A stretch of 64,000 nt of DNA from positions 17,539 through 81,538 of the forward strand of contig JBDKVB010000073.1 in the NCBI GenBank assembly GCA_039679385.1. Direction: 5' to 3'. The notes under the pieces are model-generated. The model made no database searches, had not been told where the DNA came from, and worked only from the letters and a program-made list of their open reading frames with translations. The position numbers and the translations under genes are program-made. The DNA comes from Armatimonadia bacterium. GTDB lineage: Bacteria; Armatimonadota; Zipacnadia; Zipacnadales; JABUFB01. Below are positions 46,459-63,091 of this stretch, piece after piece (position 1 is the stretch's first letter; the number at the start of each line of letters is the position of its first letter).

Positions 46459-49400
46459 ATGGTCGCACATCGTACCTGTTCCACCCTCCCACCGACAGCG
46501 ATCTGCAGCCGCCCGCATCCAGCCCACTCCGCCGGGGCGAGCCATCTGATCGCCCTCAGCCTTCTCAGCCTGGCTGTGGTGGCGCTCTTGCCCTTGCTTC
46601 CGTCCCGCGCTTCCGCAGCGCCGGTGACCGCTCTCCTGGAGGATGCCGAGGGCAAGCTCAAGGGTTGGCCCGGCAACGCGGTTGTCGATCCCGACGCCTC
46701 CCAGGGCAAAGCCTCGGTGTGCTGGACGCCGGATGCGCACGCGAACGCCCAGTCCCTCAACTTCGACTTCGCCGGCCGCGGTGTCGAGTTGTCCGAGTGG
46801 GACCGCTTGGTCTTCGATTACAAGATGCCCAAGAGTGGCTGCATCTGGTGGGGTGTCAAGATCGTCGACTTCCCGCTCGGCGACGGCATGCAGGCAACCT
46901 GGCAGCTCACCGACCCCGACGCAACCAAGCCGGGGGTCTGGCACAAGGCCGTCATCGACCTGCAGCACCCGACCTGGCTGTGGGGCGACAAGCCCGACAA
47001 GACGTCTCAGCTCATCATGTTCCGCTGCCAGATGGCTGAGGGTAAGGTCACGCCCATCCTGCTGGACAACCTCCGTCTCGAGCGCGACCCCTTCCGGATC
47101 GAGAAGGTGGAACGACAGGAGCCGGTTCAGGAGGGCGACGTCCTCTACTCCAACTACGAGGTCCGGCTGCAGAACGCCACCGACGACCAGATCACGGTAG
47201 CTGTCGGTCTGCGACATACTGACGCGAACCTCACGGCCGAGGCCGGCCTTCAGGAAGTCGTGATACCCGCTCGGTCCGTGCGGTCCGTCAAGGCGCAGCT
47301 CATCGCTCAGCTCAAGGGGGAAAAGGCCGCTTCCCCACTCACTGCTCTCAGCACAGAGCTCTTCGCACAGGTGAAAGGCATGGCTGACACAGAAAAGACT
47401 GCCGCACTGACCCTTGCCGTCCCGCTGGGGAAACTGCAGCACCCCTTTGCTCTACTGACGAAGCAAGACGTACCTCGCATACTCGAAGCTGTGCAGAAGT
47501 CGCCTGAGGCCAAGGCAGTCTATGACGGCCTCAAGCAGCGTGCCGACTCCTGGCTGACCAAGGCGCCCCAGTATCCCGACCGCGGCGGCCAGTGGTGGCA
47601 CTGGTACACCTGCAAGGCTTGCGGCGGCAAACTGGTCACGAAATCGCCGACGGAGCATGTCTGCGCTGACTGCGGTAAGGTATACACCGGCTGGCCCTAC
47701 GATGATGTGGTCCTGGACCGCGATCATAGTGCTCTCGCCGGCGCCATTCGCGACTGTGGTCTGATGTTCACCCTCACCGGCAACAAGGCCTATGCGGCCA
47801 AGGCCCGCGAGATCCTCATGGGCTACGCCGAGCGGTATCTGAACTACCCACTCCACGACATCAACGGCAAGCCGAACAAGGGCGGCGGCCATGTGGGCCC
47901 GCAGACCCTGGACGAGTCGACGTGGCTCATTCCCGTGGTGCAGGGCTTCGACTGTATCTACGACACCCTCAGCGCCGACGACGTCAAGTACCTCGCCGAC
48001 AAGATGCTGCTTCCGGCGGCCTGGCTCATTCACGACCACCAGTGGGGCATCCACAACATCTGCTGCTGGCATGACTCGGCCTACGGGCTGGTTGGCCTGG
48101 CCCTGGCGGAGCCGACGCTGGCCGCCGATGCGATCGCAGGGCCCAAGGGCTTCCACCAGCAGGTCGAGAAGGGCATCTCCGATGATGGTCTGTGGTATGA
48201 GGGCGCCTGGGGTTACCACTACTACACCATGATGGCGCTGAGCCCGCTTGCAGTCGCTGCCCACAACATCGGCATCGAGATGTACAGCGAACGATACAAG
48301 CGGATGTACGACGCGCCCCTGAAGTTCATGGCCCCCAAGGGTGAGCTGCCGGCCTTCCATGACAGCGGCACCTCCAACGCCCTCGGTTCGGGGAACCTCT
48401 ACGAGATCGCCTATGCTCGCTGGCAGGATCCGATCCATCTGCTGCCTGTGATCCAGGCCGGGCGCAAGAGCCTGGAGACTCTGCTCTACGGAGTCCCGCT
48501 TGGTGCGGAACCCGAGTTCAAGCTGCAGTCCACAGTCTTCCCGGCCGCCGGCTGGGCCATCCTCCGCAGCGGTGACGTGGGCACCAGCCTTGCCGACAAG
48601 CACATCCCGCAGAACTACCTGGCCCTTGACTTCGGCCCCCATGGCGGCGGACACGGGCACCCGGACAAGCTCTCCTTCGTCTTCTATGGCAAGGACACAC
48701 TCCTGGCCGAGGACCCCGGCTGCATCGCCTACGGCAACCCCGCCCACCAGGGCTGGTTCCGCCAGACCGTGAGTCACAACACCGTGGTCGTCAACGGCAA
48801 GAGCCAGCAGGCTTGCACCGGCGAGACGCAGTTCGCCTCCTTCGGAGACGGCATCGGCATCTTCAGCGCACGGGCCGACGGGGCCTATCCGGGAGTCCGC
48901 CTGCGCCGCACCGTGGCCCTCATCGGTGACCGCCTGATCGACGTTTTCCTGTGCCAGGCGACCGAGGGCGAGGCAACCTTCGACTGGTGCTACCACAACC
49001 GAGGCGCCTTCGAGAGCGTCCTGCCTCTGCAGGCGATGACCACAGGCCCCACCGGTGACGGCTACAGCTGGGCAAAGGAGTGGCGACAGGCTGAGGCGAA
49101 TCAGGAGTGGACGGCAGTCTGGCGCGGCGACAAGGCACCCAGCGTTGCCTTCGCTCAAGCTGCCCCCGATGGCTCTCGCGAGGTTCTTGCCGCCATCGGC
49201 ATGGGCAACCCGACGAAGATCAAGGTGCCCTTCGTCGTTTCCCGTCAGAAGGGCAAGAGCGCGCTGTTCTGTTCAGCTATGCAGGTCTTCGATGGACCTG
49301 ACACACCGCAGTTGCAGGTGCGCGTGCTTCCCATCGGCTCCTTCAGCGGCAACGCCGAAGAGCAGCCCGTGGCAGTCGAGGTTACCGGCAACGGTATGCG

Positions 49401-49575
49401 TGACGTGCTGCTGGTCAACCCCGCTGGTGGCGTCCTGAAGGCCGGCGAGTTTGAGCTCGAGGGACAGGGCGCTGCCCTGCGGTACCGAGGTGAGGCCCTG
49501 GAGAGTCTGGTCGTCGCCGGAGAGGCCAAGGTCCGCGTCAACGGCCGCCTGACCGCACCGACTGCCGGCAAGTAG
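46459..49575 (+). CDS. secreted heparinase II/III-like (alginate-lyase-superfamily) protein with N-terminal beta-sandwich and Zn-ribbon
   Basis: Signal peptide. C4 ribbon (CKACGG...CADCGK). Heparinase II/III-like (alpha/alpha)-toroid and C-terminal beta-sheet region with HGGGHGHPDKLSF. Confidence 0.65.
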   Translation: MVAHRTCSTLPPTAICSRPHPAHSAGASHLIALSLLSLAVVALLPLLPSRASAAPVTALLEDAEGKLKGWPGNAVVDPDASQGKASVCWTPDAHANAQSLNFDFAGRGVELSEWDRLVFDYKMPKSGCIWWGVKIVDFPLGDGMQATWQLTDPDATKPGVWHKAVIDLQHPTWLWGDKPDKTSQLIMFRCQMAEGKVTPILLDNLRLERDPFRIEKVERQEPVQEGDVLYSNYEVRLQNATDDQITVAVGLRHTDANLTAEAGLQEVVIPARSVRSVKAQLIAQLKGEKAASPLTALSTELFAQVKGMADTEKTAALTLAVPLGKLQHPFALLTKQDVPRILEAVQKSPEAKAVYDGLKQRADSWLTKAPQYPDRGGQWWHWYTCKACGGKLVTKSPTEHVCADCGKVYTGWPYDDVVLDRDHSALAGAIRDCGLMFTLTGNKAYAAKAREILMGYAERYLNYPLHDINGKPNKGGGHVGPQTLDESTWLIPVVQGFDCIYDTLSADDVKYLADKMLLPAAWLIHDHQWGIHNICCWHDSAYGLVGLALAEPTLAADAIAGPKGFHQQVEKGISDDGLWYEGAWGYHYYTMMALSPLAVAAHNIGIEMYSERYKRMYDAPLKFMAPKGELPAFHDSGTSNALGSGNLYEIAYARWQDPIHLLPVIQAGRKSLETLLYGVPLGAEPEFKLQSTVFPAAGWAILRSGDVGTSLADKHIPQNYLALDFGPHGGGHGHPDKLSFVFYGKDTLLAEDPGCIAYGNPAHQGWFRQTVSHNTVVVNGKSQQACTGETQFASFGDGIGIFSARADGAYPGVRLRRTVALIGDRLIDVFLCQATEGEATFDWCYHNRGAFESVLPLQAMTTGPTGDGYSWAKEWRQAEANQEWTAVWRGDKAPSVAFAQAAPDGSREVLAAIGMGNPTKIKVPFVVSRQKGKSALFCSAMQVFDGPDTPQLQVRVLPIGSFSGNAEEQPVAVEVTGNGMRDVLLVNPAGGVLKAGEFELEGQGAALRYRGEALESLVVAGEAKVRVNGRLTAPTAGK

Positions 49576-49686: not shown

Positions 49687-52020
49687 ATGGAGTTCCAGCT
49701 TACCGACCTCATCGATGGCCAGTACAAGGTTGTCGAGAAGCACCGCGGGGGAATGAGCCTCGTCTACATCGTCCTGGACGAGTTTTCCCAGAAGCGCTTC
49801 GCCATCAAGACCGTCAAAGAGGACTTCCTCGATGACCTCAGCGTCATCGACCGCTTCCACGAAGAAGCTCGCACGTGGATGAACATTGGCCGACACTTGC
49901 ACGTGGTCGAGGCGATCATCTACCGCAACATCGGCGGGCAGCCCTTCCTCTGGCTCGAGTACGTCGACGGCAGCGACCTGCAGAAGCTCATCGAACAGGA
50001 ACACCGCCTGCTTCCTACCCAGGTGGTCCTCTACGCCCTGCAGGTCTGCGAGGCCATGCAGTATGTCCACACCGCCCAGGTCCGCAGTCAACGTGGCGTG
50101 ATCCACCGAGACCTCAAACCCGCCAACATCATGCTCGACCGGCGGCTGGGTGTGAAGATCACGGACTTTGGCCTGGCCAAGCTCTACGGCGGCACCCGGG
50201 GACTCACAGACGCCGGTGTCGGGTTGGGCACCTACCTGTACATGCCGCCCGAGCAGTTCCTCGACGCCGCGACGGCCGATGCCACCTCCGACATCTTCTC
50301 CTTTGGCGCGTGCATGTACGCCGCGCTGACCGGTAAGCCGCCCGTCACTGGCGACACCATCGGCGCGGTCATCAACAGCATCCTCAGCAAGACCGCGCCA
50401 AGCCCGGAGAAGGTCTGCGACGAAGTCCCGGCAGAGCTGGCGCAGATCGTCATGTGGTGCCTCGCCAAGCCCCGAGAGCGTCGGTTCCCGAGCTTCGAGG
50501 CACTGGGTGGCGCCCTCGAAGCGGTCCTGCCCATCTGCAACGAGTCCTCGGCCGACACCGTCGTGCACAAATGTCAGGGCTGCGGCCATCTCACTCTGCA
50601 CGAGTACCGCGTCTGCCCCGTCTGCGCCAGTTACTTCGACGTCGGCAGTCTGCGGGACTTCCTGGCAAAGGGAGAGAGCCGCGAGACCCGCTCCGTGAGC
50701 GTACCCCAACCGACCGCAGCGCCACAGCCCGCTCAGGCGCCGGAAGCCGCACCGCCGCCGTCGTCCGAGCAAGCTCCCGCGGAGGCCGGTCCTACTGCCG
50801 CAGACCTGTACGCGCAGGCTCTCCAGCATCGGCAGGCTGGGCGGTCCCGTCAGGCACTCTCACTTCTGCGTGACGCGCTGACCCTCGATCCTTCCCACAA
50901 GGAGGCGCGCGCAGCCTTCGACGAGTTGGCGTTGCAGGTCGCTCGTGAGAAGACGCAGGCGGCCACCAAGGCCTACAACTGGGGGATGTTCCGCGGGAAC
51001 GTGACCCGCAGCGGCTACACCCCGGAGGCCATCGCACCACCTCTGCGCAGGGCGTGGCAGACCCGCGTCGGCGAGTGGATCATCGGCTCACCGGCAGTGG
51101 TCAACGGTGTGGTCTACGTCGGCGCGTATGTCGACAAGCCGGGGAGACATGGGCGGATGGCGGCCCTGCGTGCCCAGGACGGCGAGGCGCTGTGGACTGC
51201 CGACTTCGCCTATGAGATCGTCAGCAGCCCCCTGGTGTTCGAGGGACGCACGCTCTACTTCGGCTGCCAGAACAACCTTGTCGCCCTGGACGCAAAGACC
51301 GGGCGCCGGGTGTGGGAGTTCACGACTGCCGGTGAAGTAGTCGGCGGCCCGGGTGCCTGGAAGCGTGTCGTTTTCTTCGGTAGCTGCGACAGCCGCCTCT
51401 ACGGCATCCACCCGCAGAGCGGGCAACAGATGTGGGCCTTCTCCTCGCGCGGCGAGATCTTCTCCTCGCCTGCCTACTGGAACGGGGTAGTCTACGTCGG
51501 CTCCAGCGACCACCGGCTTTACGCCGTCAATGCAGCCTCCGGGCGCGGCGTGTGGGAGTTTGTCAGTGGAGGCGAGATCGCGGGCTCGCCGGCCTACGCC
51601 AACGAGCGCGTCTACTTCGGTTCGACCGATCGCCGCGTATACTGCCTCGATGCACAGACCGGCCAGAAGCTCTGGGAGTACCAGACCGAAGCCGAGATCC
51701 ACAGCTCGCCTGCGGTGTGGGGCGAGTGCCTCTACGTGGGCTCGCGCGACCACTTCCTCTACGCTCTGGACTCGCGCACCGGCGAACTGCGCTGGCGTTT
51801 TGCTACCGGCGACTGGGTACATAGCTCCCCGGTCATCAGCGGCAACATCGTCTACTGCGGCTCGCACGACAAGAAGCTCTACGCGGTCGAAGCCGAGAGC
51901 GGCGTTCTGGTCTGGGAGTACCAAACTGCCGGCGAGGTCCAGGCCTCACCGGCAGTCTCAGCGGGAGCCGTCTACGCTGCTTCCAACGACGGCAACGTCT
52001 ACTGCTTCACCGCACGCTAG
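49687..52020 (+). CDS. Hanks-type Ser/Thr protein kinase fused to a PQQ-repeat beta-propeller
   Basis: Kinase subdomains (AIK, HRDLKPANIML, DFGLAK, PPE), Zn-ribbon CQGCGH...CPVCAS, a Pro-rich linker, and then about 8 PQQ/BamB-like repeats (GxVYxGSxDxxLYAxDAxTG). Confidence 0.85.
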   Translation: MEFQLTDLIDGQYKVVEKHRGGMSLVYIVLDEFSQKRFAIKTVKEDFLDDLSVIDRFHEEARTWMNIGRHLHVVEAIIYRNIGGQPFLWLEYVDGSDLQKLIEQEHRLLPTQVVLYALQVCEAMQYVHTAQVRSQRGVIHRDLKPANIMLDRRLGVKITDFGLAKLYGGTRGLTDAGVGLGTYLYMPPEQFLDAATADATSDIFSFGACMYAALTGKPPVTGDTIGAVINSILSKTAPSPEKVCDEVPAELAQIVMWCLAKPRERRFPSFEALGGALEAVLPICNESSADTVVHKCQGCGHLTLHEYRVCPVCASYFDVGSLRDFLAKGESRETRSVSVPQPTAAPQPAQAPEAAPPPSSEQAPAEAGPTAADLYAQALQHRQAGRSRQALSLLRDALTLDPSHKEARAAFDELALQVAREKTQAATKAYNWGMFRGNVTRSGYTPEAIAPPLRRAWQTRVGEWIIGSPAVVNGVVYVGAYVDKPGRHGRMAALRAQDGEALWTADFAYEIVSSPLVFEGRTLYFGCQNNLVALDAKTGRRVWEFTTAGEVVGGPGAWKRVVFFGSCDSRLYGIHPQSGQQMWAFSSRGEIFSSPAYWNGVVYVGSSDHRLYAVNAASGRGVWEFVSGGEIAGSPAYANERVYFGSTDRRVYCLDAQTGQKLWEYQTEAEIHSSPAVWGECLYVGSRDHFLYALDSRTGELRWRFATGDWVHSSPVISGNIVYCGSHDKKLYAVEAESGVLVWEYQTAGEVQASPAVSAGAVYAASNDGNVYCFTAR

Positions 52021-54662: not shown

Positions 54663-54705
54663 TTGACTTGCCTCGTTGGAATCAGTATACTTGTCTCGAT
54701 ACAAG
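54663..54705 (+). promoter_or_regulatory. sigma70-like promoter TTGACT-17-TATACT overlapped by a TTGT-N6-ACAA palindrome (candidate Rex operator)
   Basis: -35 at 54663-54668 and -10 at 54686-54691. Imperfect palindrome CTTGTCTCGATACAAG at 54690-54705, about 125 nt upstream of rex. Confidence 0.3.
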
Positions 54706-54831
54706 AAACTCGATAATTGTTGCTCGATTAACCAGAAAGCAACTCCAGAGGGCAAGTCCTTCCCAACCGAGATCTACCCGGACTTGACCGATGCCGAAGG
54801 CACAAGACGCCCACGCGAGGAGGGCACTCAC

Positions 54832-55518
54832 ATGCTCAAAGACCAGCTACAGACCGTTCCAGTGCCGACGCTGCGCAGACTGCCGTCCTATCTGCAGTTC
54901 CTGCGCAGGCTTCAGGCGACGGGTCGCGATGTGGTCTCCTGCACTCACATTGCCGACGACCTGCACCTCGATCCGACCCAGGTGCGTAAGGACTTGCAGA
55001 CGACCGGCATCGTCGGCAAGCCCCGGGTCGGCTACTACCTGCCCGCACTCATCGAGGCCATTGAAAGCCTCTTGGGCTGGAACAACACCACGGAGGCCTT
55101 CCTGGTGGGCGTCGGCAGTCTCGGCACTGCCCTGATGGGCTACGGTGGGTTCAAAGAGTCCGGGCTCGAGGTCCTGGCCGGGTTCGACGTGGATCCTGCC
55201 AAAGTCGGCACCGAAGTCCACGGCAAGCAGATCCTCCACTTGGACAGGCTCCCCGATCTGGCCGCCCGGATGCACATCCATCTGGGCATCATCACTGCAC
55301 CGGCCGAGTGTGCCCAGGATATTGCCCAGCTGATGGTGCTGAGCGGCATCCGTGCCATATGGAACTTCGCCCCGACGACCCTTGAGGTCCCCGAGGGAGT
55401 CATTCTCGAGAACGTAACACTCGCCGCAAGCCTGGCCGTGTTGTCCAGCAAGCTCACCGCCATGCTGCGTGCCGAAGAGCAGGGAGGCGTCACCAATGCG
55501 TCAACCACAGTCCGATAG
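54832..55518 (+). CDS. rex: redox-sensing transcriptional repressor Rex
   Basis: Winged-helix N-terminus (PTLRRLPSYLQFLRRL) and Rossmann NADH-binding region (FLVGVGSLGTALMGY). GAGGAGGG SD. Confidence 0.85.
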   Translation: MLKDQLQTVPVPTLRRLPSYLQFLRRLQATGRDVVSCTHIADDLHLDPTQVRKDLQTTGIVGKPRVGYYLPALIEAIESLLGWNNTTEAFLVGVGSLGTALMGYGGFKESGLEVLAGFDVDPAKVGTEVHGKQILHLDRLPDLAARMHIHLGIITAPAECAQDIAQLMVLSGIRAIWNFAPTTLEVPEGVILENVTLAASLAVLSSKLTAMLRAEEQGGVTNASTTVR

Positions 55519-56014
55519 CTCGCCGTTGGCGGCCCGTCAGTTCGCCAAGGTCTGCGAGATCCTCGACCGCCACGAGCGAGACGCAGCGAAGCTGATCCCC
55601 ATCCTCCAGGAGGTGCAGGAAGAGTACCGGTACCTGCCTGAGGAGGTCCTGACCTACGTGGCCACGTCCCTCGGACTGCCGCCTGCCAAGGTCTACGGCG
55701 TCGCCACCTTCTATGCCCACTTCACGCTGGAGGCCAAGGGCAAGTACGTCATTCGCGTGTGTGACGGAACCGCCTGTCACGTGAAGCGCTCCATCCCGAT
55801 CCTGGAAGCGGTTCGCAAGCGTCTGGGAATGGACGAGGAGCGCAAGACCACCAGCGACATGCTCTTCACCCTTGAGACGGTCTCTTGCCTGGGTGCCTGC
55901 GGTCTGGCTCCCGTCATGGTGATCAACGATGAGGTCCACGGTCAGATGACCCCTGACAAGGCCGTCGCCCTCGTGGAAGAGATCATTGCGAGAGAGGGAG
56001 ACAGCAATGAGTAA
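55496..56014 (+). CDS. hydC: NADH-dependent [FeFe]-hydrogenase subunit, NuoE-like 2Fe-2S (HydC)
   Basis: Thioredoxin-like [2Fe-2S] ligands CDGTACHVK...CLGACGLAP. AGGGAGG SD. Start overlaps the rex 3' end. Confidence 0.85.
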   Translation: MRQPQSDSSPLAARQFAKVCEILDRHERDAAKLIPILQEVQEEYRYLPEEVLTYVATSLGLPPAKVYGVATFYAHFTLEAKGKYVIRVCDGTACHVKRSIPILEAVRKRLGMDEERKTTSDMLFTLETVSCLGACGLAPVMVINDEVHGQMTPDKAVALVEEIIAREGDSNE

Positions 56015-57908
56015 CAGTGCCATCCAGACTCTTGACCTCGACAAAACCGCCGAGCAGTTCGGCGAGATGATGGAGCAGACCGACAAGCGCGTGATCATCT
56101 GCGCAGGCACCGGCTGCATCGCCAATGGATCACTGAAGGTCTATGACGCCTTCCTCAAGGAGATCGAGCAGGAGGGCCTCAAGGCCGTTGTCCAGCTCAA
56201 GGAAGAGGAGGAGCAGGAGGGCATCTACGTCTCCAAGAGCGGATGCCAGGGCTTCTGCCAGATGGGTCCGCTCGTATGGGTGGAGCCGGCTGGTGTCCTG
56301 TACGTCAAGGTCACTCCCACCGATGTCCCCGACATTGTAGGAGCTACCCTCAAGCATGGCGTGGTCCTCGAGCACCTCCTGTACACAGAGCCGGCCTCCG
56401 GTGCGCGCGCCAAGAACGCCCAGGAGATCCACTTCTACCAGCGCCAGTCGCGCACGGTCCTCAAGGAATGCGGGCACATCGACCCAGAGGACATCCGCGA
56501 GTACATCTCTCACGGTGGCTACTTCGCAGCTCGCAAGGTCTTCACCGAGATGACACCGGAGACCGTCTGCGAGGAAATGCTCCACGCCGGTCTGCGTGGT
56601 CGTGGTGGTGGCGGGTTCCCCACCGGCAGGAAATGGGACCTCACGCGCATTGAGCCCGAGGGCAAGAAGTACGTCATCTGCAACGGCGACGAGGGTGACC
56701 CCGGGGCCTTCATGGACCGCAGCGTCATGGAGGGCAATCCCCACAGCGTGCTTGAGGGCATGGTGATCGCCGCCCGAGCCATCGGCGCTGACGAGGGTTT
56801 CCTCTACGTGCGCGCGGAGTACCCACTGGCTGTGAAGCGCCTGCGCAAGGCCGTGGCGGATGCGGAGAGCGTCGGCATACTCGGCGACAACGTCTTCGGG
56901 AGTGGGCTCTCGCTGCACCTGCATGTGATGGAGGGTGCCGGCGCCTTCGTCTGTGGCGAGGAGACCGCCATGATCGCCTCCATCGAGGGTAACCGAGGCA
57001 TGCCTGCACCGAAGCCGCCCTACCCCGCTCAGAAGGGTCTGTGGGGCAAGCCGACGGTCATCAATAACGTAGAGACGCTTGCCACCGTCCCGCTGATCTT
57101 CCGCATGGGCGCCGCCAGGTTCCGCTCCATCGGCACCGAGGGATCGCCGGGCACGAAGACCTTCGCTCTCACCGGCCACGTCGCCAACACCGGCCTGATT
57201 GAGGTTCCCTTCGGCGCGTCCTTGCGCGAGATCGTCTACAACATCGGCGGCGGCGTCACCGACAACCAGGGCAACCTCACCGGCGACGGGTTCAAGGCCG
57301 TTCAGATCGGTGGCCCCTCCGGCGGTTGTCTGACGGAGGAGTTCCTTGACCTGCCCCTTGACTACGATTCCATCAAGACGGCCGGTGCCATGGTCGGCTC
57401 CGGCGGTCTGGTGGTCATGAACAAGCAGACCTGCATCGTTCGCATCGCTCGCTTCTTCATGCAGTTCACCCAGAACGAGTCCTGCGGCAAGTGCGTGCTG
57501 TGTCGTGAGGGCACCAAGCAGATGCTCGCCCTCCTGGACGACATCATCGAGGGCCGTGCCGACGAGGGAACCCTCGAGCTCCTCGAGACTCTGGCCAAGA
57601 CTGTCCAGAAGGGTTCTCTCTGCGGGCTTGGCAAGACCGCGCCGAATCCTGTCCTGTCCACGCTGCGCTACTTCCGCCCCGAATACGAGGCGCATGTGTT
57701 CCAGAAGCGCTGCCCGACCGGCGAGTGCAAGGCCCTCACGCCGCCCAAGATCGACCCTGAGAAGTGCCGTGGCTGCGGTCTGTGCGCACGAGTCTGCCCG
57801 GCTGAGGCGATCTTCGGCGAGAAGAAGCAGGCGCATCACATCGATCCGGAGCTGTGCATCAAGTGCCGAGCCTGCGTGTCAACCTGCAAGTTCGGGGCGA
57901 TCGCCTAG
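56007..57908 (+). CDS. hydB: NADH-dependent [FeFe]-hydrogenase subunit, NuoF-like flavoprotein (HydB)
   Basis: NADH/FMN motifs (GLRGRGGGGFPTGRKW), SLBB, a NuoF 4Fe-4S site, and two C-terminal ferredoxin CxxCxxCxxxCP clusters. Confidence 0.9.
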   Translation: MSNSAIQTLDLDKTAEQFGEMMEQTDKRVIICAGTGCIANGSLKVYDAFLKEIEQEGLKAVVQLKEEEEQEGIYVSKSGCQGFCQMGPLVWVEPAGVLYVKVTPTDVPDIVGATLKHGVVLEHLLYTEPASGARAKNAQEIHFYQRQSRTVLKECGHIDPEDIREYISHGGYFAARKVFTEMTPETVCEEMLHAGLRGRGGGGFPTGRKWDLTRIEPEGKKYVICNGDEGDPGAFMDRSVMEGNPHSVLEGMVIAARAIGADEGFLYVRAEYPLAVKRLRKAVADAESVGILGDNVFGSGLSLHLHVMEGAGAFVCGEETAMIASIEGNRGMPAPKPPYPAQKGLWGKPTVINNVETLATVPLIFRMGAARFRSIGTEGSPGTKTFALTGHVANTGLIEVPFGASLREIVYNIGGGVTDNQGNLTGDGFKAVQIGGPSGGCLTEEFLDLPLDYDSIKTAGAMVGSGGLVVMNKQTCIVRIARFFMQFTQNESCGKCVLCREGTKQMLALLDDIIEGRADEGTLELLETLAKTVQKGSLCGLGKTAPNPVLSTLRYFRPEYEAHVFQKRCPTGECKALTPPKIDPEKCRGCGLCARVCPAEAIFGEKKQAHHIDPELCIKCRACVSTCKFGAIA

Positions 57909-58018
57909 CACCACGGTTCGGGTCGGCTGAGGCTGCCGTGCACCGCGGCTCTCGCTTCCTAGGACGACGCAAGGTGCACGCCCAAACCTGAGAGCACGCG
58001 ACACTGGGAGTGTAAAGG

Positions 58019-60031
58019 ATGAACCAGGACAACTTTGTAATGATCGACGGGCGCGAAATCCCGATCGAGGGCGAGGCCAACTTGCTGGAGCTGTGCCGCA
58101 AGGCCAACATCGACATTCCCACCTTCTGCTACCACTCACACCTGAGCGTCTACGGCGCTTGCCGCCTGTGTCTGGTCGATGTGGAGGGGCGCGGCATCGT
58201 CACTTCCTGCTCCACCGCGCCGACGCCGGGGATGAAGCTGCGCACGAACACCGACGAGATCCGCCAGATGCGCAAGATCGCCATTGAGCTGCTCTTGGCC
58301 AACCATGACCAGAGCTGCCCGACCTGCCCCAAGAGCGCAACTTGCCGGCTCCAGGACTTGACCCGTCGGCTCGGGGTTACCGAGGTCCGCTTCAAGCGCA
58401 CCCAGAAGGAGGCGCCCCGTGACCTCAGTTCGCCCTCCCTCGTGCGCGACCCCAACAAGTGCATCCTCTGCGGCGACTGCGTCCGCGTGTGTGCCGAGAT
58501 CCAGGGCATCGGCGCCATCGACTTCGCCAACCGCGGAAGCCATGTCTGTGTTGTGCCCGCCTTTGGCAAGGATCTGGGTACGGTCGAGTGTGTGAACTGT
58601 GGCCAGTGTGCTGCCGTCTGTCCGACCGGAGCACTCACCCCGCGCTCAGAGATCGACGATGTCTGGAAGGACCTCAACAACCCGGACAAGCTGGTCGTGG
58701 CCCAGATCGCGCCGGCCGTACGTGTAGCGCTGGGCGAGTCCTTCGGCCTCGAGCCGGGAGCCCTGACCATCGGGCAGATCGTCGCAGCCTTGCGAGCCAT
58801 GGGGTTCGACAAGGTCTATGACACCTGCTTCGCCGCCGACCTGACCGTGATGGAGGAAGGCAACGAGTTCCTGCAGCGCGCTGCCAAAGGCGAGAAGCTC
58901 CCGCAGTTCACCTCCTGCTGCCCGGGCTGGGTCAAGTTCGCCGAGCAATACTACCCGGAGCTGCTTCCGAACCTGTCCTCCTGTCGCTCGCCGCAGCAGA
59001 TGTTCGGCTCGCTGGCCAAGGAAATGCTGCCTGTGGAGCTTGGCATTGACCGCTCCAAGATCGTCGTCGTCTCCATCATGCCCTGCACTGCAAAGAAGTT
59101 CGAGGCCCGACGCAGCGAGTTCCGCCATGAGGGCATCCCGGACGTCGACCATGTGCTGACCACCCAGGAACTGGCCCTGATGATCGAGGGCGCCGGTATC
59201 AGCTTCAACAAGCTGCAGCCCGAGTCGCTGGACCTCCCCCTGGGCTTCAAGACCGGAGCCGGCATCATCTTCGGAGTCACCGGCGGCGTCGCTGAGGCCG
59301 TCCTGCGACTTGCGGCCGAGAAGATCTCAGGCATCAAGCTCGACAATCCGGACTTCAAGATCGTCCGCGGTGAAGACGGGGTCCGCGAAGCCACCCTCAA
59401 GTTCGGTGACAAGGAGCTCAAGCTCGCCGTCGTCCATGGTCTTGCCAACGCCCGCAAGGTAGCTGAGAAGGTCCGTGCCGGGGAGACGGACTACGACCTT
59501 ATCGAGGTCATGGCCTGCCCCGGTGGCTGTGTCGGCGGCGCCGGTCAGCCCGTAACGATCGACGCCAATGCCCGGACGCAGCGCGCTGCCGGGCTGTATG
59601 CGGCCGACAAGATGGTCCAGCTCCACAAGTCGCAGGAGAACCCCTACGTTGCCCAGGCCTACGACATGACCCTGGGCGAGGTCGGCGGGCCCAAGGCGCA
59701 CCAGCTCCTGCACACCCACTACCACAGCCGCAAGCGTATCAGCGACGAGGATCTCACGCTCACCGGCGGTGAGGAGCCTGCACGCCTGAGCGTCAACGTG
59801 TGTGTGGGTACGAGCTGCTTCGTCCGTGGCGCTCAGAACCTGCTCCATCGCCTGCTGGACTACGTGCAGGACCAGGGGCTTAACGACACCGTTGAGGTCA
59901 ACGCCACCTTCTGCTTCGAGCGCTGCGATCGCGGGCCGACCGTCGCCGTTGGCGACACGGTCATCGAGAAGTGCACCTTCGACAAGGCGACAGCGGCAAT
60001 CCAGGAGGCCCTGGAGAAGATCGTAGCCTGA
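58019..60031 (+). CDS. hydA: [FeFe]-hydrogenase catalytic subunit HydA with C-terminal thioredoxin-like 2Fe-2S domain
   Basis: NuoG-like N-terminus. H-cluster motifs L1 TSCCPGW, L2 MPCTAKKFE, L3 EVMACPGGCVGGAGQP. C-terminal CVGTSC...CFERCDRGP. Confidence 0.9.
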   Translation: MNQDNFVMIDGREIPIEGEANLLELCRKANIDIPTFCYHSHLSVYGACRLCLVDVEGRGIVTSCSTAPTPGMKLRTNTDEIRQMRKIAIELLLANHDQSCPTCPKSATCRLQDLTRRLGVTEVRFKRTQKEAPRDLSSPSLVRDPNKCILCGDCVRVCAEIQGIGAIDFANRGSHVCVVPAFGKDLGTVECVNCGQCAAVCPTGALTPRSEIDDVWKDLNNPDKLVVAQIAPAVRVALGESFGLEPGALTIGQIVAALRAMGFDKVYDTCFAADLTVMEEGNEFLQRAAKGEKLPQFTSCCPGWVKFAEQYYPELLPNLSSCRSPQQMFGSLAKEMLPVELGIDRSKIVVVSIMPCTAKKFEARRSEFRHEGIPDVDHVLTTQELALMIEGAGISFNKLQPESLDLPLGFKTGAGIIFGVTGGVAEAVLRLAAEKISGIKLDNPDFKIVRGEDGVREATLKFGDKELKLAVVHGLANARKVAEKVRAGETDYDLIEVMACPGGCVGGAGQPVTIDANARTQRAAGLYAADKMVQLHKSQENPYVAQAYDMTLGEVGGPKAHQLLHTHYHSRKRISDEDLTLTGGEEPARLSVNVCVGTSCFVRGAQNLLHRLLDYVQDQGLNDTVEVNATFCFERCDRGPTVAVGDTVIEKCTFDKATAAIQEALEKIVA

Positions 60032-60191
60032 TCCGCGTGGCCCAAGAGCCCGTCACTTTCCGAAAGGTCAACCATCGTTGGGAAGGTCGGGGAAGGGAGG
60101 GGTCGAATCTGACCGTCAGGGGTACAGTGGAGACACTGGATGCCGGTCAGCTCGGGCCCTCCCCCCACTTTTGACACGGACGGAGCCTTCC

Positions 60192-61970
60192 ATGGACACT
60201 GAGCAGAGCAGGAGTCGCATCGTCTTCACCAACAAGGCGCGCTGCCGCGACTGCTACCGGTGCGTGCGGGTGTGCCCGGTGAAGGCCATTCGAATGGAGG
60301 ACGGCCAGGCCCACGTGGAAGAGGACCGCTGCATCGCCTGCGGGACGTGCATCCGTGAGTGCCCGCAAGGCGCCAAGACCTTCCGCGATGACACCTCCCG
60401 GGCCAAGGAGATCATGGCAGGCGGAGGGCCCATCGCCGCCAGCGTTGCCCCTTCCTTCGCCGCCGTGTTCACCGAGTGGGAGCGCAAGCGTCTGCCCTCA
60501 GCCCTGCGCAAACTCGGCTTCTCCTACGTCGCCGAGACCGCGATCGGTGCGTACCACGTGGCCCACAAGACGGCCGAGCTAGTGGCCGCCGACCCCACGC
60601 ATTCCCACGTCTGCACCGCCTGTCCTGCCGCCGTCACCTACATCGAGCGCTACCAGCCCGACCTTGTCGGCTACCTCACACCCGTGTGTTCCCCGATGGT
60701 CGCTCACGCCCGGCACATCAAGGCCAACCTCGGACCGGATACCCACGTTATCTTCATCGGTCCCTGCGTTGCCAAGAAGGCCGAAGCTGAGCGACCCGAG
60801 AACGAGGGTGCCGTGGACTGTGTCCTCACCTTCCGCGAGCTGGTGCAGTGGCTCGACCAGGAGAGCATTCTGCTAGCCGAGTGCGAGGAGAGCGGCTTCG
60901 ATGAGCAGCCCGAGGGCGATGCCCGCTTCTTCCCCCTCGAAGGTGGAAGCCTGCGCACCGCCTGCCTCGACGCCAACCTGCTCGCCACCGACAACGTATC
61001 GGTCAGCGGCGCCGAAGCCGTCCATGAGGCGCTGGAGAGCCTGCGCAACGACCCCGCACCGGTTGTCATCGAGCCACTGTTCTGTCCGCACGGCTGTGTG
61101 GGTGGCCCCGCGATTCCGCGCGAAGCAAACCTCTACGACCGCCGTCGTGAGGTGCTCGGCTACGCGACACGGAATCCAGGTACCGAGCCCGGAGAGCCTG
61201 AGCCTGAGGAGGCCCTCAAGGCCGAGTTCACCGACAAGCCCCTGGTCGAGGAAGTCGAGATCACCGAAGAGAAGATCCGCGAGGTCCTGGCGCGCACCGG
61301 AAAGGTCACGCCCGAGGATGAGCTCAACTGCACCGCCTGCGGCTATCCGACTTGCCGCGACAAGGCGATCGCCGTCCTACGTGGCCTCGCCGAGCCCGAG
61401 ATGTGCATCCCGCACATGCGACGACTCGCGGAGCAGCGCACCGATCGCATCATCGAGACCAGCCCCAACGGCATCGTGATCGTCGACGAGCACATGGACA
61501 TCCTCAGCATGAGCCCGGCTTTCCGCCGCATGTTCATGTGCACCGAGGCCGTCCTGGGCAAGCGCATCTCCTACCTCATGGACCCCGACCCCTTCGAGCG
61601 TCTGGCCTCGACGGGTGAAGACCTCCTCGAGATGACCGTGACCCATGAGCGCTACGGGATTGTCTGCCACCAGATCCTCTACCCGCTGCGTGAGGAGCAC
61701 CAGTACGTGGGCATCTTCGTCAACGTCACCCGAGGGGTCGCAGACCGACAGAAGCTTGACCAGCTCCGCGCTCAGACCGTGAATCAGGCCCAGCAACTGC
61801 TGCAGCACCAAATCACGATGGCCCAGCAGATCGGCAAGTTCCTTGGCGAGAGTGCGGCGCAGGGCGAGAAGCTCGTGCAGAATCTTATGCAGATGGCGGG
61901 CGAAGAGCACGAGCCAACCGGGAAGGAGGGAGACGACTGGCTGGCCGATACCTACACGTCGAAGTCCTAG
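60192..61970 (+). CDS. hydS: sensory (group C) [FeFe]-hydrogenase-like protein with C-terminal PAS domain (HydS/HfsB-like)
   Basis: N-terminal 2x[4Fe-4S] ferredoxin. H-domain with variant motifs (TACPAAV for L1, GPCVAKK for L2, LFCPHGCVGGPAI for L3). An additional Cys cluster CTACGYPTC. A C-terminal PAS-like region. Confidence 0.75.
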   Translation: MDTEQSRSRIVFTNKARCRDCYRCVRVCPVKAIRMEDGQAHVEEDRCIACGTCIRECPQGAKTFRDDTSRAKEIMAGGGPIAASVAPSFAAVFTEWERKRLPSALRKLGFSYVAETAIGAYHVAHKTAELVAADPTHSHVCTACPAAVTYIERYQPDLVGYLTPVCSPMVAHARHIKANLGPDTHVIFIGPCVAKKAEAERPENEGAVDCVLTFRELVQWLDQESILLAECEESGFDEQPEGDARFFPLEGGSLRTACLDANLLATDNVSVSGAEAVHEALESLRNDPAPVVIEPLFCPHGCVGGPAIPREANLYDRRREVLGYATRNPGTEPGEPEPEEALKAEFTDKPLVEEVEITEEKIREVLARTGKVTPEDELNCTACGYPTCRDKAIAVLRGLAEPEMCIPHMRRLAEQRTDRIIETSPNGIVIVDEHMDILSMSPAFRRMFMCTEAVLGKRISYLMDPDPFERLASTGEDLLEMTVTHERYGIVCHQILYPLREEHQYVGIFVNVTRGVADRQKLDQLRAQTVNQAQQLLQHQITMAQQIGKFLGESAAQGEKLVQNLMQMAGEEHEPTGKEGDDWLADTYTSKS

Positions 61971-62011
61971 CAGCTCAGCAGTCGAAGAAGCCCGGTGACC
62001 CCTGCGGAGAC

Positions 62012-63091
62012 GTGTACGCCTTCGAGCGGACGGCCACTGCGACGACGCTGGTGTGCGCCGACGGGATCGGCTCGGGCATCAAGGCCAACGTGGCCGCCAA
62101 CATGGCCGCCTCCCGTCTGCTGGAGCTGCTACGTCAGGGCTTCTCTCAGCGCGAGGCCTTCTCGCATGTCGTCCAGACCATGGAGGACGCCAAGCACGCG
62201 GACCTGCCCTACGTGGCCTTCAGCCTCGCACGGATCCTCAACGGCGGCGAGACGACGGTCCTGTCCTACGAGGCGCCGGGACCGCTTCTGGTCGGACGAC
62301 GCCACACGGCGATCCTGCCTCAGCACAACGTGATGCTGGGCGCTGCTCTGACCCTGGAGTCCAACTGCCACCTGGAGCCGGGCGAGGGCATCCTGCTCAT
62401 GACTGACGGCATCACGCAGGCCGGTCTCGGAGGCAGTACACGAGGCGGTTGGAAACTGGAGGGCGCCACCAGACACGCCACGGACCTGCTTGCCAATGGT
62501 GTGCCGCCGGATAGCCTGCCCGCACGCATGAACCAGCGGGCCGTTCAGCTAAGCGCTGGCACAGCCGGCGACGACTGCACAACCGTCCTGGCCCTCTGTC
62601 GGCTGGGGAAGGTCGTGACCGTCTTCACCGGGCCGCCGGTGGACGCGAAGAAGGACCGCGAGGTGGCTCGCAACTTCCTCGCCGCCGAGGGGACCAAGGT
62701 CATCTGCGGGGCCACCACGGCCGACATCATCGCCAGGTACCTCGGAACCAAGGTCACCATCGACCGAAGCAGCCAGAGCATGCTGGCGCCTCCCGGCTAC
62801 CTACTCGACGGCATCGATCTGGTCACCGAGGGGTCCGTCACCCTCAACCAAGTCTACAACGTTCTGGATGTAGACCCCTCGCAGTTCGACGAAGACAGCG
62901 GCGTCACCAGCCTCTACGAACACTTGGTCCATGCGGACCGCGTGAACTTCATCCTGGGCACCGCGCAGAACCCCGCAAACTGGCACATCAGCTTCCAGCA
63001 GCGGGGCCTGCTGCCTCGCACCAAGATCGTGGAGCTCCTGGCCGAGAAGCTCCGCGAGGCAGGCAAGCTCGTCGTCATCCAGCGGGTCTAG
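62012..63091 (+). CDS. PP2C-family (SpoIIE-like) Ser/Thr phosphatase with C-terminal extension
   Basis: PP2C motifs (LVCADGIGSGIKANVAANMAAS...LLMTDGI...GDDCTTVLAL). GTG start. About 150-aa extra C-terminal domain. Confidence 0.65.
   Translation: MYAFERTATATTLVCADGIGSGIKANVAANMAASRLLELLRQGFSQREAFSHVVQTMEDAKHADLPYVAFSLARILNGGETTVLSYEAPGPLLVGRRHTAILPQHNVMLGAALTLESNCHLEPGEGILLMTDGITQAGLGGSTRGGWKLEGATRHATDLLANGVPPDSLPARMNQRAVQLSAGTAGDDCTTVLALCRLGKVVTVFTGPPVDAKKDREVARNFLAAEGTKVICGATTADIIARYLGTKVTIDRSSQSMLAPPGYLLDGIDLVTEGSVTLNQVYNVLDVDPSQFDEDSGVTSLYEHLVHADRVNFILGTAQNPANWHISFQQRGLLPRTKIVELLAEKLREAGKLVVIQRV

Follow-up and report, generated by a model that had tools for sequence, protein, structure and literature searches.

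What does a putative sensory [FeFe]-hydrogenase report to, and what controls it, when its gene stands between the genes of a catalytic hydrogenase and that of a protein phosphatase? This question is raised by the rex-hydCBA-hydS-pp2c locus of an Armatimonadia bacterium (contig JBDKVB010000073.1 of assembly GCA_039679385.1). The locus lies in a 64-kb stretch of DNA that is hereafter called the window; all the coordinates count along it. According to the list of open reading frames (ORFs), Pfam, and NCBIfam, the genes rex, hydC, hydB, hydA, hydS, and pp2c form one co-directional six-gene block. The 3′ end of rex and the start of hydC overlap by 23 nt. All six genes were found where a first-pass annotation, made from the sequence alone, had placed them, the overlap of rex with the hydC start included. 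Rex and HydS identical to those of the window are encoded, in unchanged gene order, by the NCBI metagenome-assembled genome (MAG) GCA_021372855.1. We consider it likely that the block is a single transcription unit read from the promoter at 54663-54691 and gated by Rex, in which HydS would signal to the phosphatase. The core of the earlier reading, namely a bifurcating-type hydrogenase with a group C sensor and a PP2C phosphatase under Rex, is sound. The arrangement is of an already recognised kind, since HydDB already names a class “C3, phosphatase-linked”, and the window adds one member to it. The additions made here are modest: a TCGA-type operator array, a CTG start giving a 384-aa phosphatase, and a family-restricted C-terminal domain in this phosphatase.

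The HydS–Phosphatase Pair in Related Genomes

A HydS scan of the genome collection yielded 27 loci, which were mapped by tblastn with six proteins of the window; 24 of them were informative (L001-L024). Six further loci were obtained by an exact-protein look-up. A PP2C gene follows hydS in 24 of the 24 informative loci, while the genes in front of this pair vary. The full rex-hydCBA-hydS-pp2c order is found in Planctomycetota, Armatimonadia, and unclassified MAGs, each time between different neighbours. The Hydrogenedentales locus (L019) has rex-hydS-pp2c without hydCBA. In the Firmicutes-like loci, hydCBA-hydS-pp2c is preceded by an XRE-cupin regulator in place of rex. The six further loci contain the same cassette with unrelated flanks. 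All-against-all ORF clustering of 25 loci revealed no other conserved neighbours, including a kinase or a STAS gene.

The regulator that occupies the rex position consists of an XRE-type helix–turn–helix and a cupin domain and is about 180-208 aa in length. It is encoded at 1531-2157 in L021, at 314-859 in L022, and at 4253-4855 in L024.

The HydS Protein

The hydS gene (60192-61970, plus strand) encodes a protein of 592 aa, which Pfam, the motifs, and the alignment indicate to be a putative H2-sensing [FeFe]-hydrogenase of group C (M2f). Its H-domain is recognised by PF02906 (1.4e-49). The counterparts of the L1-L3 motifs are TACPAAV (aa 142-148), GPCVAKK (aa 190-196), and FCPHGCVGG (aa 297-305). 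All four cysteines of the H-cluster are kept, in TAC(144)P, GPC(192), FC(298)PHG, and GC(302)VGG, as is the lysine of MPCxxK. Two N-terminal [4Fe-4S] motifs, CxxCxxCxxxCP, are located at aa 18-29 and 47-58, and an additional cysteine cluster Cx2Cx4Cx16C (CTACGYPTC-x16-C; PF04060, 8e-11) is located at aa 380-405. It is followed by a PAS domain at about aa 416-500 (ORF residues 454-538), which barely exceeds the Pfam cut-offs (PAS, 24.6 bits against 22.6; PAS_8, 23.9 against 21.8). The C-terminal tail of about 50 residues, read by eye, is a possible coiled coil. The altered H-cluster motifs, the extra cysteine cluster, and the C-terminal PAS domain are each present as the first-pass annotation had quoted them. 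Intact TSCCP and MPCxxK motifs, which that annotation had named as a sign against a sensory enzyme, were not found in HydS; TACPA and GPC stand in their place.

When HydS is aligned to HydA of T. maritima (7p5h_A), Ala stands at the position of the relay cysteine C299, Gly at that of M353, and Leu at that of M497. An EE..E..R stretch is aligned with HV..K..L, and LSS with LTP. By our mapping of the CpI numbering onto this alignment, the equivalents of E279, E282, R286, and S319 are presumably also replaced. A lost proton relay, a small residue in place of M353, two N-terminal [4Fe-4S] motifs, an extra cysteine motif, and a PAS domain are the published criteria of M2f, or group C, enzymes (PMC8163306, PMC10055695). 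The domain order and the substitutions fit M2f and not the catalytic group A, which agrees with the sensory assignment proposed earlier. By these features, HydS is a group C/M2f enzyme without the group-A proton relay. More than 5000 database proteins are related to it at E < 1e-10, and the best 120 of them all share the architecture of about 590 aa. A sequence search found no solved structure of HydS, which shares only low identity with the hydrogenases of solved structure.

The Phosphatase, Its Start Codon, and Its C-Terminal Domain

The gene following hydS encodes a PP2C phosphatase of the SpoIIE/RsbU type, as had been predicted, and its start lies inside the 3′ end of hydS. In the public records, this protein begins at GTG 62012 and has 359 aa (358-359 aa across the clade). 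However, the gene most likely starts at CTG 61937 and, with this corrected start, extends over 61937-63091 of the plus strand, encoding 384 aa. A Shine–Dalgarno sequence AAGGAGG (61923-61929) precedes the CTG codon (61937-61939) by 7 nt, both being located on the plus strand within the hydS 3′ end, whereas GTG 62012 has just GGAG 2 nt upstream. The frame upstream of GTG 62012 is open and encodes LAGRYLHVEVLAAQQSKKPGDPCGD, a residue-for-residue match to the N-terminus of the family, including the PCGD motif; CTG 61937 stands where the homologues have Met. The 25-codon extension before GTG 62012 contains no ATG, GTG, or TTG. This CTG is shared by the relatives L029 and L031 (about 65% identical), in which the extension, with its PCGD, is conserved. 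In L029, the CTG comes immediately after a TGA in the same frame, which delimits the start. Most phosphatase homologues are 382-384 aa in length, and their starts overlap the end of hydS by 19-31 nt in L032, L034, and L035. In the AF2 model of the phosphatase (pLDDT 90), residues 6-15 form the first β-strand of the core. The annotation from GTG 62012 is likely a systematic mis-annotation in the clade, or else reflects a non-canonical start. A fusion of HydS and PP2C by −1 frameshifting was also considered; it is unlikely because of the TGA that directly precedes the CTG in L029.

The metal-binding motifs of the phosphatase are PCGD (aa 22-25), DGIGSG (aa 42-47), DGITQAG (aa 157-163), and GDDCT (aa 211-215). 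The Asp residues of the last three are invariant in 38 homologues, and the Gly-Asp of PCGD is present in at least 90%. The family scores are 3.6e-14 for PF07228 and 28.6 bits against a threshold of 24 for PP2C_2, the latter being passed with the corrected start. Given that all four Asp motifs are conserved, the phosphatase probably has activity, and its translation is probably coupled to that of HydS.

The C-terminal part of the phosphatase (about aa 221-384, nt 62597-63091) is an α/β domain to which no Pfam family and no PDB relative corresponded at the sequence level. A HMMER search with this domain in 1.84 billion cluster representatives returned 718 hits, nearly always at about residues 220-383 of proteins of about 380-390 aa. 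Since nearly all the hits occupy this position in PP2C-sized proteins, the domain apparently exists only fused to this PP2C. The Firmicutes-like relatives also align with the phosphatase of the window over its full length, the C-terminal domain included. A profile of the phosphatase family compared with the PDB indicated SpoIIE, RsbX, and related “serine phosphatases”. The AF2 model is closest to 3pu9, Rv1364c-RsbU, RsbX, SpoIIE, and SiaA (E about 1e-12), whereas PstP/Stp are further away (about 1e-9).

The Catalytic Hydrogenase HydCBA

The hydC gene (55496-56014, plus strand) encodes a NuoE-like thioredoxin-type [2Fe-2S] subunit of 172 aa (PF01257, 1e-52); the NCBI record makes the same call. 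The hydB gene (56007-57908, plus strand), identified from the ORF list, Pfam, and PDB matches, encodes a NuoF-like FMN/NADH subunit of 633 aa with an N-terminal [2Fe-2S] domain, the FMN/NADH site, and a C-terminal 2x[4Fe-4S] domain. Its PDB matches are 7t2r_B (E 1e-232), 8a6t_B (E 1e-223), and 7p5h_B (E 1e-217). The public annotation places the start of hydB at the later codon 56067, which gives 613 aa. In the 633-aa form, the alignments with homologues and with solved HydB chains begin at residues 4-11, so ATG 56007, which overlaps the hydC stop by 8 nt, is favoured over 56067.

The hydA gene (58019-60031, plus strand) encodes the catalytic subunit, a group-A [FeFe]-hydrogenase of 670 aa according to Pfam, NF040763, and PDB matches. 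Its L1-L3 motifs are intact (TSCCP, MPCTAKK, and MACPGGCVGG), and a C-terminal thioredoxin-like [2Fe-2S] domain is present. The score with the NF040763 model “NADH-dependent [FeFe] hydrogenase group A6” is 764.9 bits, marginally below the curated cut-off of 765. The closest solved relatives of HydA are 8a6t_A (E 3e-179), 7p5h_A (E 2e-177, over residues 7-658, including the C-terminal [2Fe-2S] domain), and 7q4v_A. All three structures, 8a6t, 7p5h, and 7q4v, are bifurcating HydABC enzymes. The set of subunits and domains, which is that expected of HydABC of the A3 type, and these nearest solved relatives bear out the initial description of hydC-hydB-hydA as a trimeric NADH/ferredoxin-type [FeFe]-hydrogenase. 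Judging from sequence, HydCBA is of the group-A trimeric NuoE/NuoF-linked kind, which confurcates NADH and reduced ferredoxin to H2.

The spacer between hydA and hydS contains a GC-rich hairpin (60095-60163, plus strand), followed by CCCACUUUUG with a short U run. The whole spacer folds at −71.7 kcal/mol, which is a marginal result compared with the background (z = −2.0). Strong GC-rich hairpins, some of them with short U runs, are also present in the hydA-hydS spacers of most relatives (L002, L010, L015, L020, L029, L033, and L034). The hairpin of the window may be a partial terminator or an element that processes or stabilises the transcript between the enzyme and sensor genes. By attenuation or processing, such hairpins may set the enzyme-to-sensor ratio. 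The folding of the hydB-hydA spacer is no better than that of shuffled sequences, and an Rfam scan of 54-64 kb returned a sub-threshold chance match alone.

The Rex Repressor and Its Candidate Operator

The rex gene (54832-55518, plus strand; ORF list, Pfam, and NCBIfam) encodes a redox-sensing repressor of 228 aa. The protein scores 275 bits with the NCBIfam equivalog NF003994 (cut-off 130), and its closest solved relative is T-Rex (1xcb, E 4e-37). Its winged-helix N-domain has the recognition helix QVRKD (aa 50-54), with the base-contacting Arg-Lys pair, and the wing GKPRVGY (aa 62-68); its NAD(H) domain has the Rossmann motif GVGSLG (aa 93-98). As far as these features indicate, it is a complete NAD(H)-type repressor with a non-canonical candidate site.

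A σ70-type promoter is located upstream of rex on the plus strand at 54663-54691. It consists of the −35 box TTGACT (54663-54668), a 17-nt spacer, and the −10 box TATACT (54686-54691), matches the consensus in 10 of 12 positions, and is the best promoter-like site of the region; the first-pass annotation had also noted it. The same annotation had noted a TTGT-N6-ACAA palindrome overlapping the promoter as a possible Rex site. The palindrome TTGTCTCGATACAA (54691-54704, unstranded) is indeed present and overlaps the promoter. As a Rex box, however, it was rejected. The known Rex box is the 18-mer TTGTGAA-N4-TTCACAA (PMC5317091, PMC2883068), so the N6 spacing is wrong, and the TTGT/ACAA arms are absent in the relatives. 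TTGT-N6-ACAA occurs once in the window, with an expectation of 0.22, and at least one match is found in 21% of the window shuffles; taken alone, the pattern does not exceed chance. The best canonical-like Rex 18-mer upstream of rex has 5 mismatches, and the variant TCGA[T/G]AA-N4-TT[A/C]TCGA is found there in its stead.

A different element was found by aligning the rex-upstream regions of the relatives. It consists of TCGA-N10-TCGA 18-mers (for example, TCGAGAAAGATTTCTCGA), which usually overlap by sharing one TCGA and lie within or just 3′ of a TTGACx-17-TAnnnT promoter. Such a promoter precedes the array in L003, L006, L014, L015, L020, L029, L033, L035, and L054 also. In the window, the candidate Rex operator array (54696-54727, unstranded) has TCGA cores at 54696, 54710, and 54724, with a 14-bp period. 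It can be read as two overlapping 18-mers, TCGATACAAGAAACTCGA (54696-54713) and TCGATAATTGTTGCTCGA (54710-54727), which cover about +5 to +36 from the −10 box. The first TCGA of the array forms the centre of the palindrome TTGTCTCGATACAA, which merely straddles the array. The consensus of the array is TCGA[T/G]A[A/T]N4[T/A]T[A/C]TCGA. Tandem Repeats Finder revealed nothing in the promoter region because the 14-bp units are too divergent.

In the 14 loci compared, exact TCGA-N10-TCGA sites occur 14 times in the 3.5 kb upstream of the operon starts and 13 times in 560 kb elsewhere (Poisson, about 6e-27). Exact sites are present in eight of the 14 loci, and one-mismatch arrays in three more. The inner A+T content of the promoter boxes is 78%, compared with 37% in the background matches. 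The motif was defined on nine loci and five were fetched afterwards; the later loci again carry it, L032 and L033 as exact sites and L029 and L035 as one-mismatch arrays. The window contains five other exact TCGA-N10-TCGA copies, which are GC-rich, with a mean inner AT of 0.37 compared with 0.78 in the promoter boxes, and which probably arose by chance; a good site is found only at the rex promoter.

A blind scan of metagenomes with the pattern TCGAGAANNNNTTCTCGA returned 120 stretches, mostly chance matches in GC-rich, apparently coding sequence. Only two matches were located in AT-rich islands. Each of them is an array behind a promoter, and a rex gene of this subfamily begins about 40 nt downstream. 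In one case (L054) rex is followed by hydCBA, and in the other (L150) by genes without a hydrogenase. The element thus travels with rex and not with the hydrogenase, and L150 is the first hint of further members of a TCGA-type Rex regulon.

By eye, from their N-terminal sequence, the genes after rex in L150 (2811-5840) resemble oxaloacetate-decarboxylase/carboxyltransferase genes. In an Armatimonadetes MAG (L032), the array and promoter (3527-3558) precede a URO-D-family gene (3605-4678) that is inserted before rex, and a second gene of this family (12982-14067) follows the phosphatase.

The crystal structure of the T. maritima Rex–DNA complex has the half-site TTGAGAA, of which G and A bases are read by Arg48 and Lys49 (PMC8836258). 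The half-site TCGAGAA differs from it by one base and keeps the G and A read by these residues, both of which Rex of the window retains in QVRKD. The differing operator base is a minor-groove contact of the wing in the T. maritima complex (PMC8836258). In the Rex subfamily of the window and L002-L035, the wing is G[KR]P[KR]VGY and helix 2 has VSCTHIA, compared with GTRGVGY and TSSEQLG in Thermus Rex. No co-variation of the wing sequence with the type of box was found within the subfamily.

Kinases and Other Candidate Signalling Partners

The first-pass annotation had suggested that a Hanks kinase encoded upstream could be the partner of the PP2C phosphatase. This kinase (49687-52020) combines a Pkinase domain with a PQQ/BamB-like β-propeller, and its gene lies 2.6 kb upstream of the promoter. 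With no conserved synteny in about 30 related loci and a PP2C that is nearer the partner-switching type, it is an unlikely partner. The remark that a “hfsD-like kinase” is absent from the locus was also mistaken in its terms, since HfsD is a ferredoxin-linked hydrogenase (PMC11837493); the kinase beside hydS of R. albus is a different gene from hfsD (PMC5707799). A STAS-type substrate encoded elsewhere appears to be a better guess than the Hanks partner, but we only infer this. Neither STAS nor HATPase_c was found among the Pfam-annotated neighbours in L029-L035.

The genes further upstream in the window are those of a CHASE2-adenylate/guanylate cyclase (44414-46360), a heparinase II/III-like protein (46459-49575, 1038 aa), and the Hanks kinase. 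None of the three is linked to the hydrogenase cassette in the relatives.

Proposed Model and Alternative Explanations

In the model that we propose, when NADH/NAD+ is low, Rex dimers would sit on the TCGA-N10-TCGA array just 3′ of the −10 box and block transcription, that of rex itself included. Accumulation of NADH would make Rex leave the DNA, and the derepressed HydABC would then shed reducing equivalents as H2. HydS would sense the level of H2, or how far its clusters are reduced or oxidised, and relay this to the phosphatase translated along with it, by way of its C-terminal cluster, PAS domain, and terminal helix. The target of the latter would be a phosphoprotein encoded elsewhere, most plausibly a partner-switching protein of the STAS type, and its dephosphorylation would feed back on the expression of hydrogenase or fermentation genes.

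Several points weigh against this model. That group C enzymes act as sensors is only theorised, with no demonstrated output, TmHydS included (PMC11376134). No locus has a kinase or STAS gene in the cassette, which leaves the subtype of the PP2C as the sole ground for the partner-switching idea. The CTG start comes from conservation and not from observation, and the sequence of HydCBA does not separate bifurcating trimers from NADH-only enzymes. The hairpin between hydA and hydS could mean that hydS-pp2c is not simply co-expressed with hydCBA. As for the operator, canonical TTGT-N10-ACAA is absent from the whole 64-kb window, box 1 of the window is weak, with 3 mismatches when compared with the extended consensus, part of the operator statistics is post hoc, and where two boxes share a TCGA, neighbouring Rex dimers may hinder each other sterically.

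The operator points bear on the rather unlikely alternative that the array is bound by another regulator, for example, an unlinked factor reading CTCGATA direct repeats, while Rex acts elsewhere or on a degenerate site. A reading of the units as direct repeats of 14 bp is equally possible, CTCGATA being present three times in the window; TCGA-sharing 18-mers are awkward for adjacent Rex dimers; no canonical TTGTGAA-N4-TTCACAA is present; and L019 and L034, with Rex of the same subfamily, have other GAA-N4-TTC palindromes and no TCGA boxes. However, the array accompanies a rex of this subfamily even before the carboxylase/decarboxylase-like genes of L150, and it shares with Rex boxes both the 18-bp geometry and the inner GAA-N4-TTC. 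Its half-site is one base from the crystallographically defined one (PMC8836258), and the cassette has no conserved regulator gene besides rex. These observations favour Rex as the protein that would bind the array. A model built from the earlier suggestions, with the Hanks kinase as the cognate kinase and TTGT-N6-ACAA as the Rex site, is very improbable. A Ser/Thr kinase does lie 2.6 kb upstream, and the palindrome does abut the −10 box, but two opposite-strand ABC-transporter genes separate the kinase from the cassette, tblastn over the 24 loci L001-L024 detected no homologue of it beside the cassette, and no kinase was called in the six further loci. In addition, the PP2C fold is closer to partner-switching phosphatases than to the Hanks-paired PstP/Stp (about 1e-12 against 1e-9), while the palindrome is at chance level, has N6 instead of N10, and lacks its arms in the relative L029, which is about 70% identical.

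For HydS itself, it is unlikely that the protein senses redox state or electron flow, or acts as an accessory hydrogenase of low activity, and is not an H2 sensor. In that case, the ferredoxin/NADH redox poise would be reported by its FeS chain and PAS domain, or it would simply supply or remove electrons for HydABC. HydS keeps a complete H-cluster site and the N-terminal 2x[4Fe-4S] relay, which other enzymes use in catalysis; TmHydS and TamHydS slowly turn over H2 (PMC10055695, PMC8163306); and reviews regard HydS-type sensing as only theorised (PMC11376134). On the other hand, HydS resembles the low-activity enzymes in having lost the proton relay and in the replacement of its second-sphere methionines, and it is paired with the phosphatase in 24 of 24 loci, including L007, L008, L011, L012, and L019, which have no adjacent hydABC. 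Such an obligatory pairing points to signalling rather than catalysis. Even less probable is a phosphatase that truly has 359 aa from GTG 62012, or a pseudo-phosphatase; without the first metal motif, it would be a scaffold and not an enzyme. The public gene calls of 358-359 aa in the clade and the lack of ATG, GTG, or TTG in the extension agree with the shorter form. Conservation of the extension with its PCGD in the window, L029, and L031, the spacing of AAGGAGG, the TGA just before the CTG in L029, and the core strand formed by residues 6-15 all contradict it, and we retain the 384-aa form. A bolder reading goes beyond the proposed model, and taken jointly its three parts are doubtful. In it, HydS and the phosphatase would be a kinase-less H2-to-phosphatase switch that spread across phyla as a two-gene unit; the Rossmann-like C-terminal domain (about 700 clusters at 50% identity) would dock on the PAS domain or tail of HydS or bind a nucleotide; and, in this lineage, control of the operon would lie with a class of Rex operator not described before, whose overlapping TCGA-N10-TCGA arrays of 14-bp period would allow multimeric Rex occupancy.

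According to reviews, the mechanism of signal transduction by group C enzymes is still unknown (PMC11376134). The locus narrows the experiment on this question. The invariant unit is HydS with one 384-aa phosphatase that carries an extra domain; the two are apparently coupled and need no neighbouring kinase, so a two-protein reconstitution is the natural test. The TCGA array is a concrete and comparatively supported candidate Rex operator for uncultured bacteria of the Planctomycetota and Armatimonadota type, and it would permit the prediction of redox regulons in their genomes. The locus also flags the public start of the phosphatase, which is likely mis-annotated systematically in the clade.

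Comparison with Known Systems

HydDB describes group C3 of [FeFe]-hydrogenases as “phosphatase-linked (putative)” (PMC5037454). The co-located Ser/Thr phosphatase that defines C3 is present in the window, while the Pfam and NCBIfam models used do not themselves separate C1, C2, and C3. The group C enzyme of R. albus is described as an H-cluster/PAS subunit with a putative Ser/Thr phosphatase subunit (PMC6776011). The R. albus module (Zheng et al. 2014, as described in PMC5707799 and PMC6776011) resembles the window in that the H-cluster/PAS protein is encoded beside a Ser/Thr phosphatase, together with a catalytic [FeFe]-hydrogenase, and in its presumed role, the feedback of H2 on hydrogenase and fermentation genes. 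In R. albus, the module accompanies the ferredoxin-only HydA2 and adhE, and a Ser/Thr kinase is reported to be adjacent, whereas the module of the window follows HydCBA, has rex as its first gene, and contains no kinase. The adjacent kinase described for R. albus has no counterpart in the window cassette or in about 30 related loci.

T. maritima offers counterparts of several components. TmHydS (M2f) has the same 2x[4Fe-4S], H-domain, Cx2Cx4Cx16C, and PAS order as HydS of the window, with Ala at the relay cysteine and Gly at M353; the M497 position is Leu in the window and Ser in TmHydS. HydA of T. maritima shares the extra C-terminal [2Fe-2S] domain of the window HydA. The Rex half-site of the T. 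maritima TM0201 operator, TTGAGAA, is one base from TCGAGAA; the window differs in its TCGA outer bases, in the overlapping arrays, and in the wing GKPRVGY, which is not of the GxRGxxY type.

Of the hfsABCD genes of Thermoanaerobacterium and C. thermocellum, HfsB corresponds to the PAS-containing hydrogenase-like HydS, and HfsC to the serine phosphatase. The window has neither HfsA nor HfsD, the ferredoxin-linked monomeric hydrogenase; hydCBA and rex are attached instead. No further hydrogenase-like ORF flanks hydS-pp2c in the window, which sets the locus apart from an hfsABCD-type operon as defined in PMC11837493. In Caldithrix abyssi, as in the window, a bifurcating-type hydABC operon starts with rex; a Rex box predicted to be autoregulatory lies upstream of it (PMC5317091). 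Unlike the candidate operator of the window, the C. abyssi box is near-canonical (cTGTGAATCAATTCACAt), and HydS-PP2C is not described there (PMC5317091).

The catalytic domain of the window PP2C is closest, both in profile and in fold, to SpoIIE, RsbX, Rv1364c-RsbU, and SiaA. A PAS domain and a helix followed by PP2C recall RsbP. In contrast to these partner-switching phosphatases, no STAS or GHKL-kinase gene is located nearby, the PAS and PP2C domains of the window belong to separate, apparently translationally coupled polypeptides, and the window PP2C carries an extra C-terminal α/β domain.

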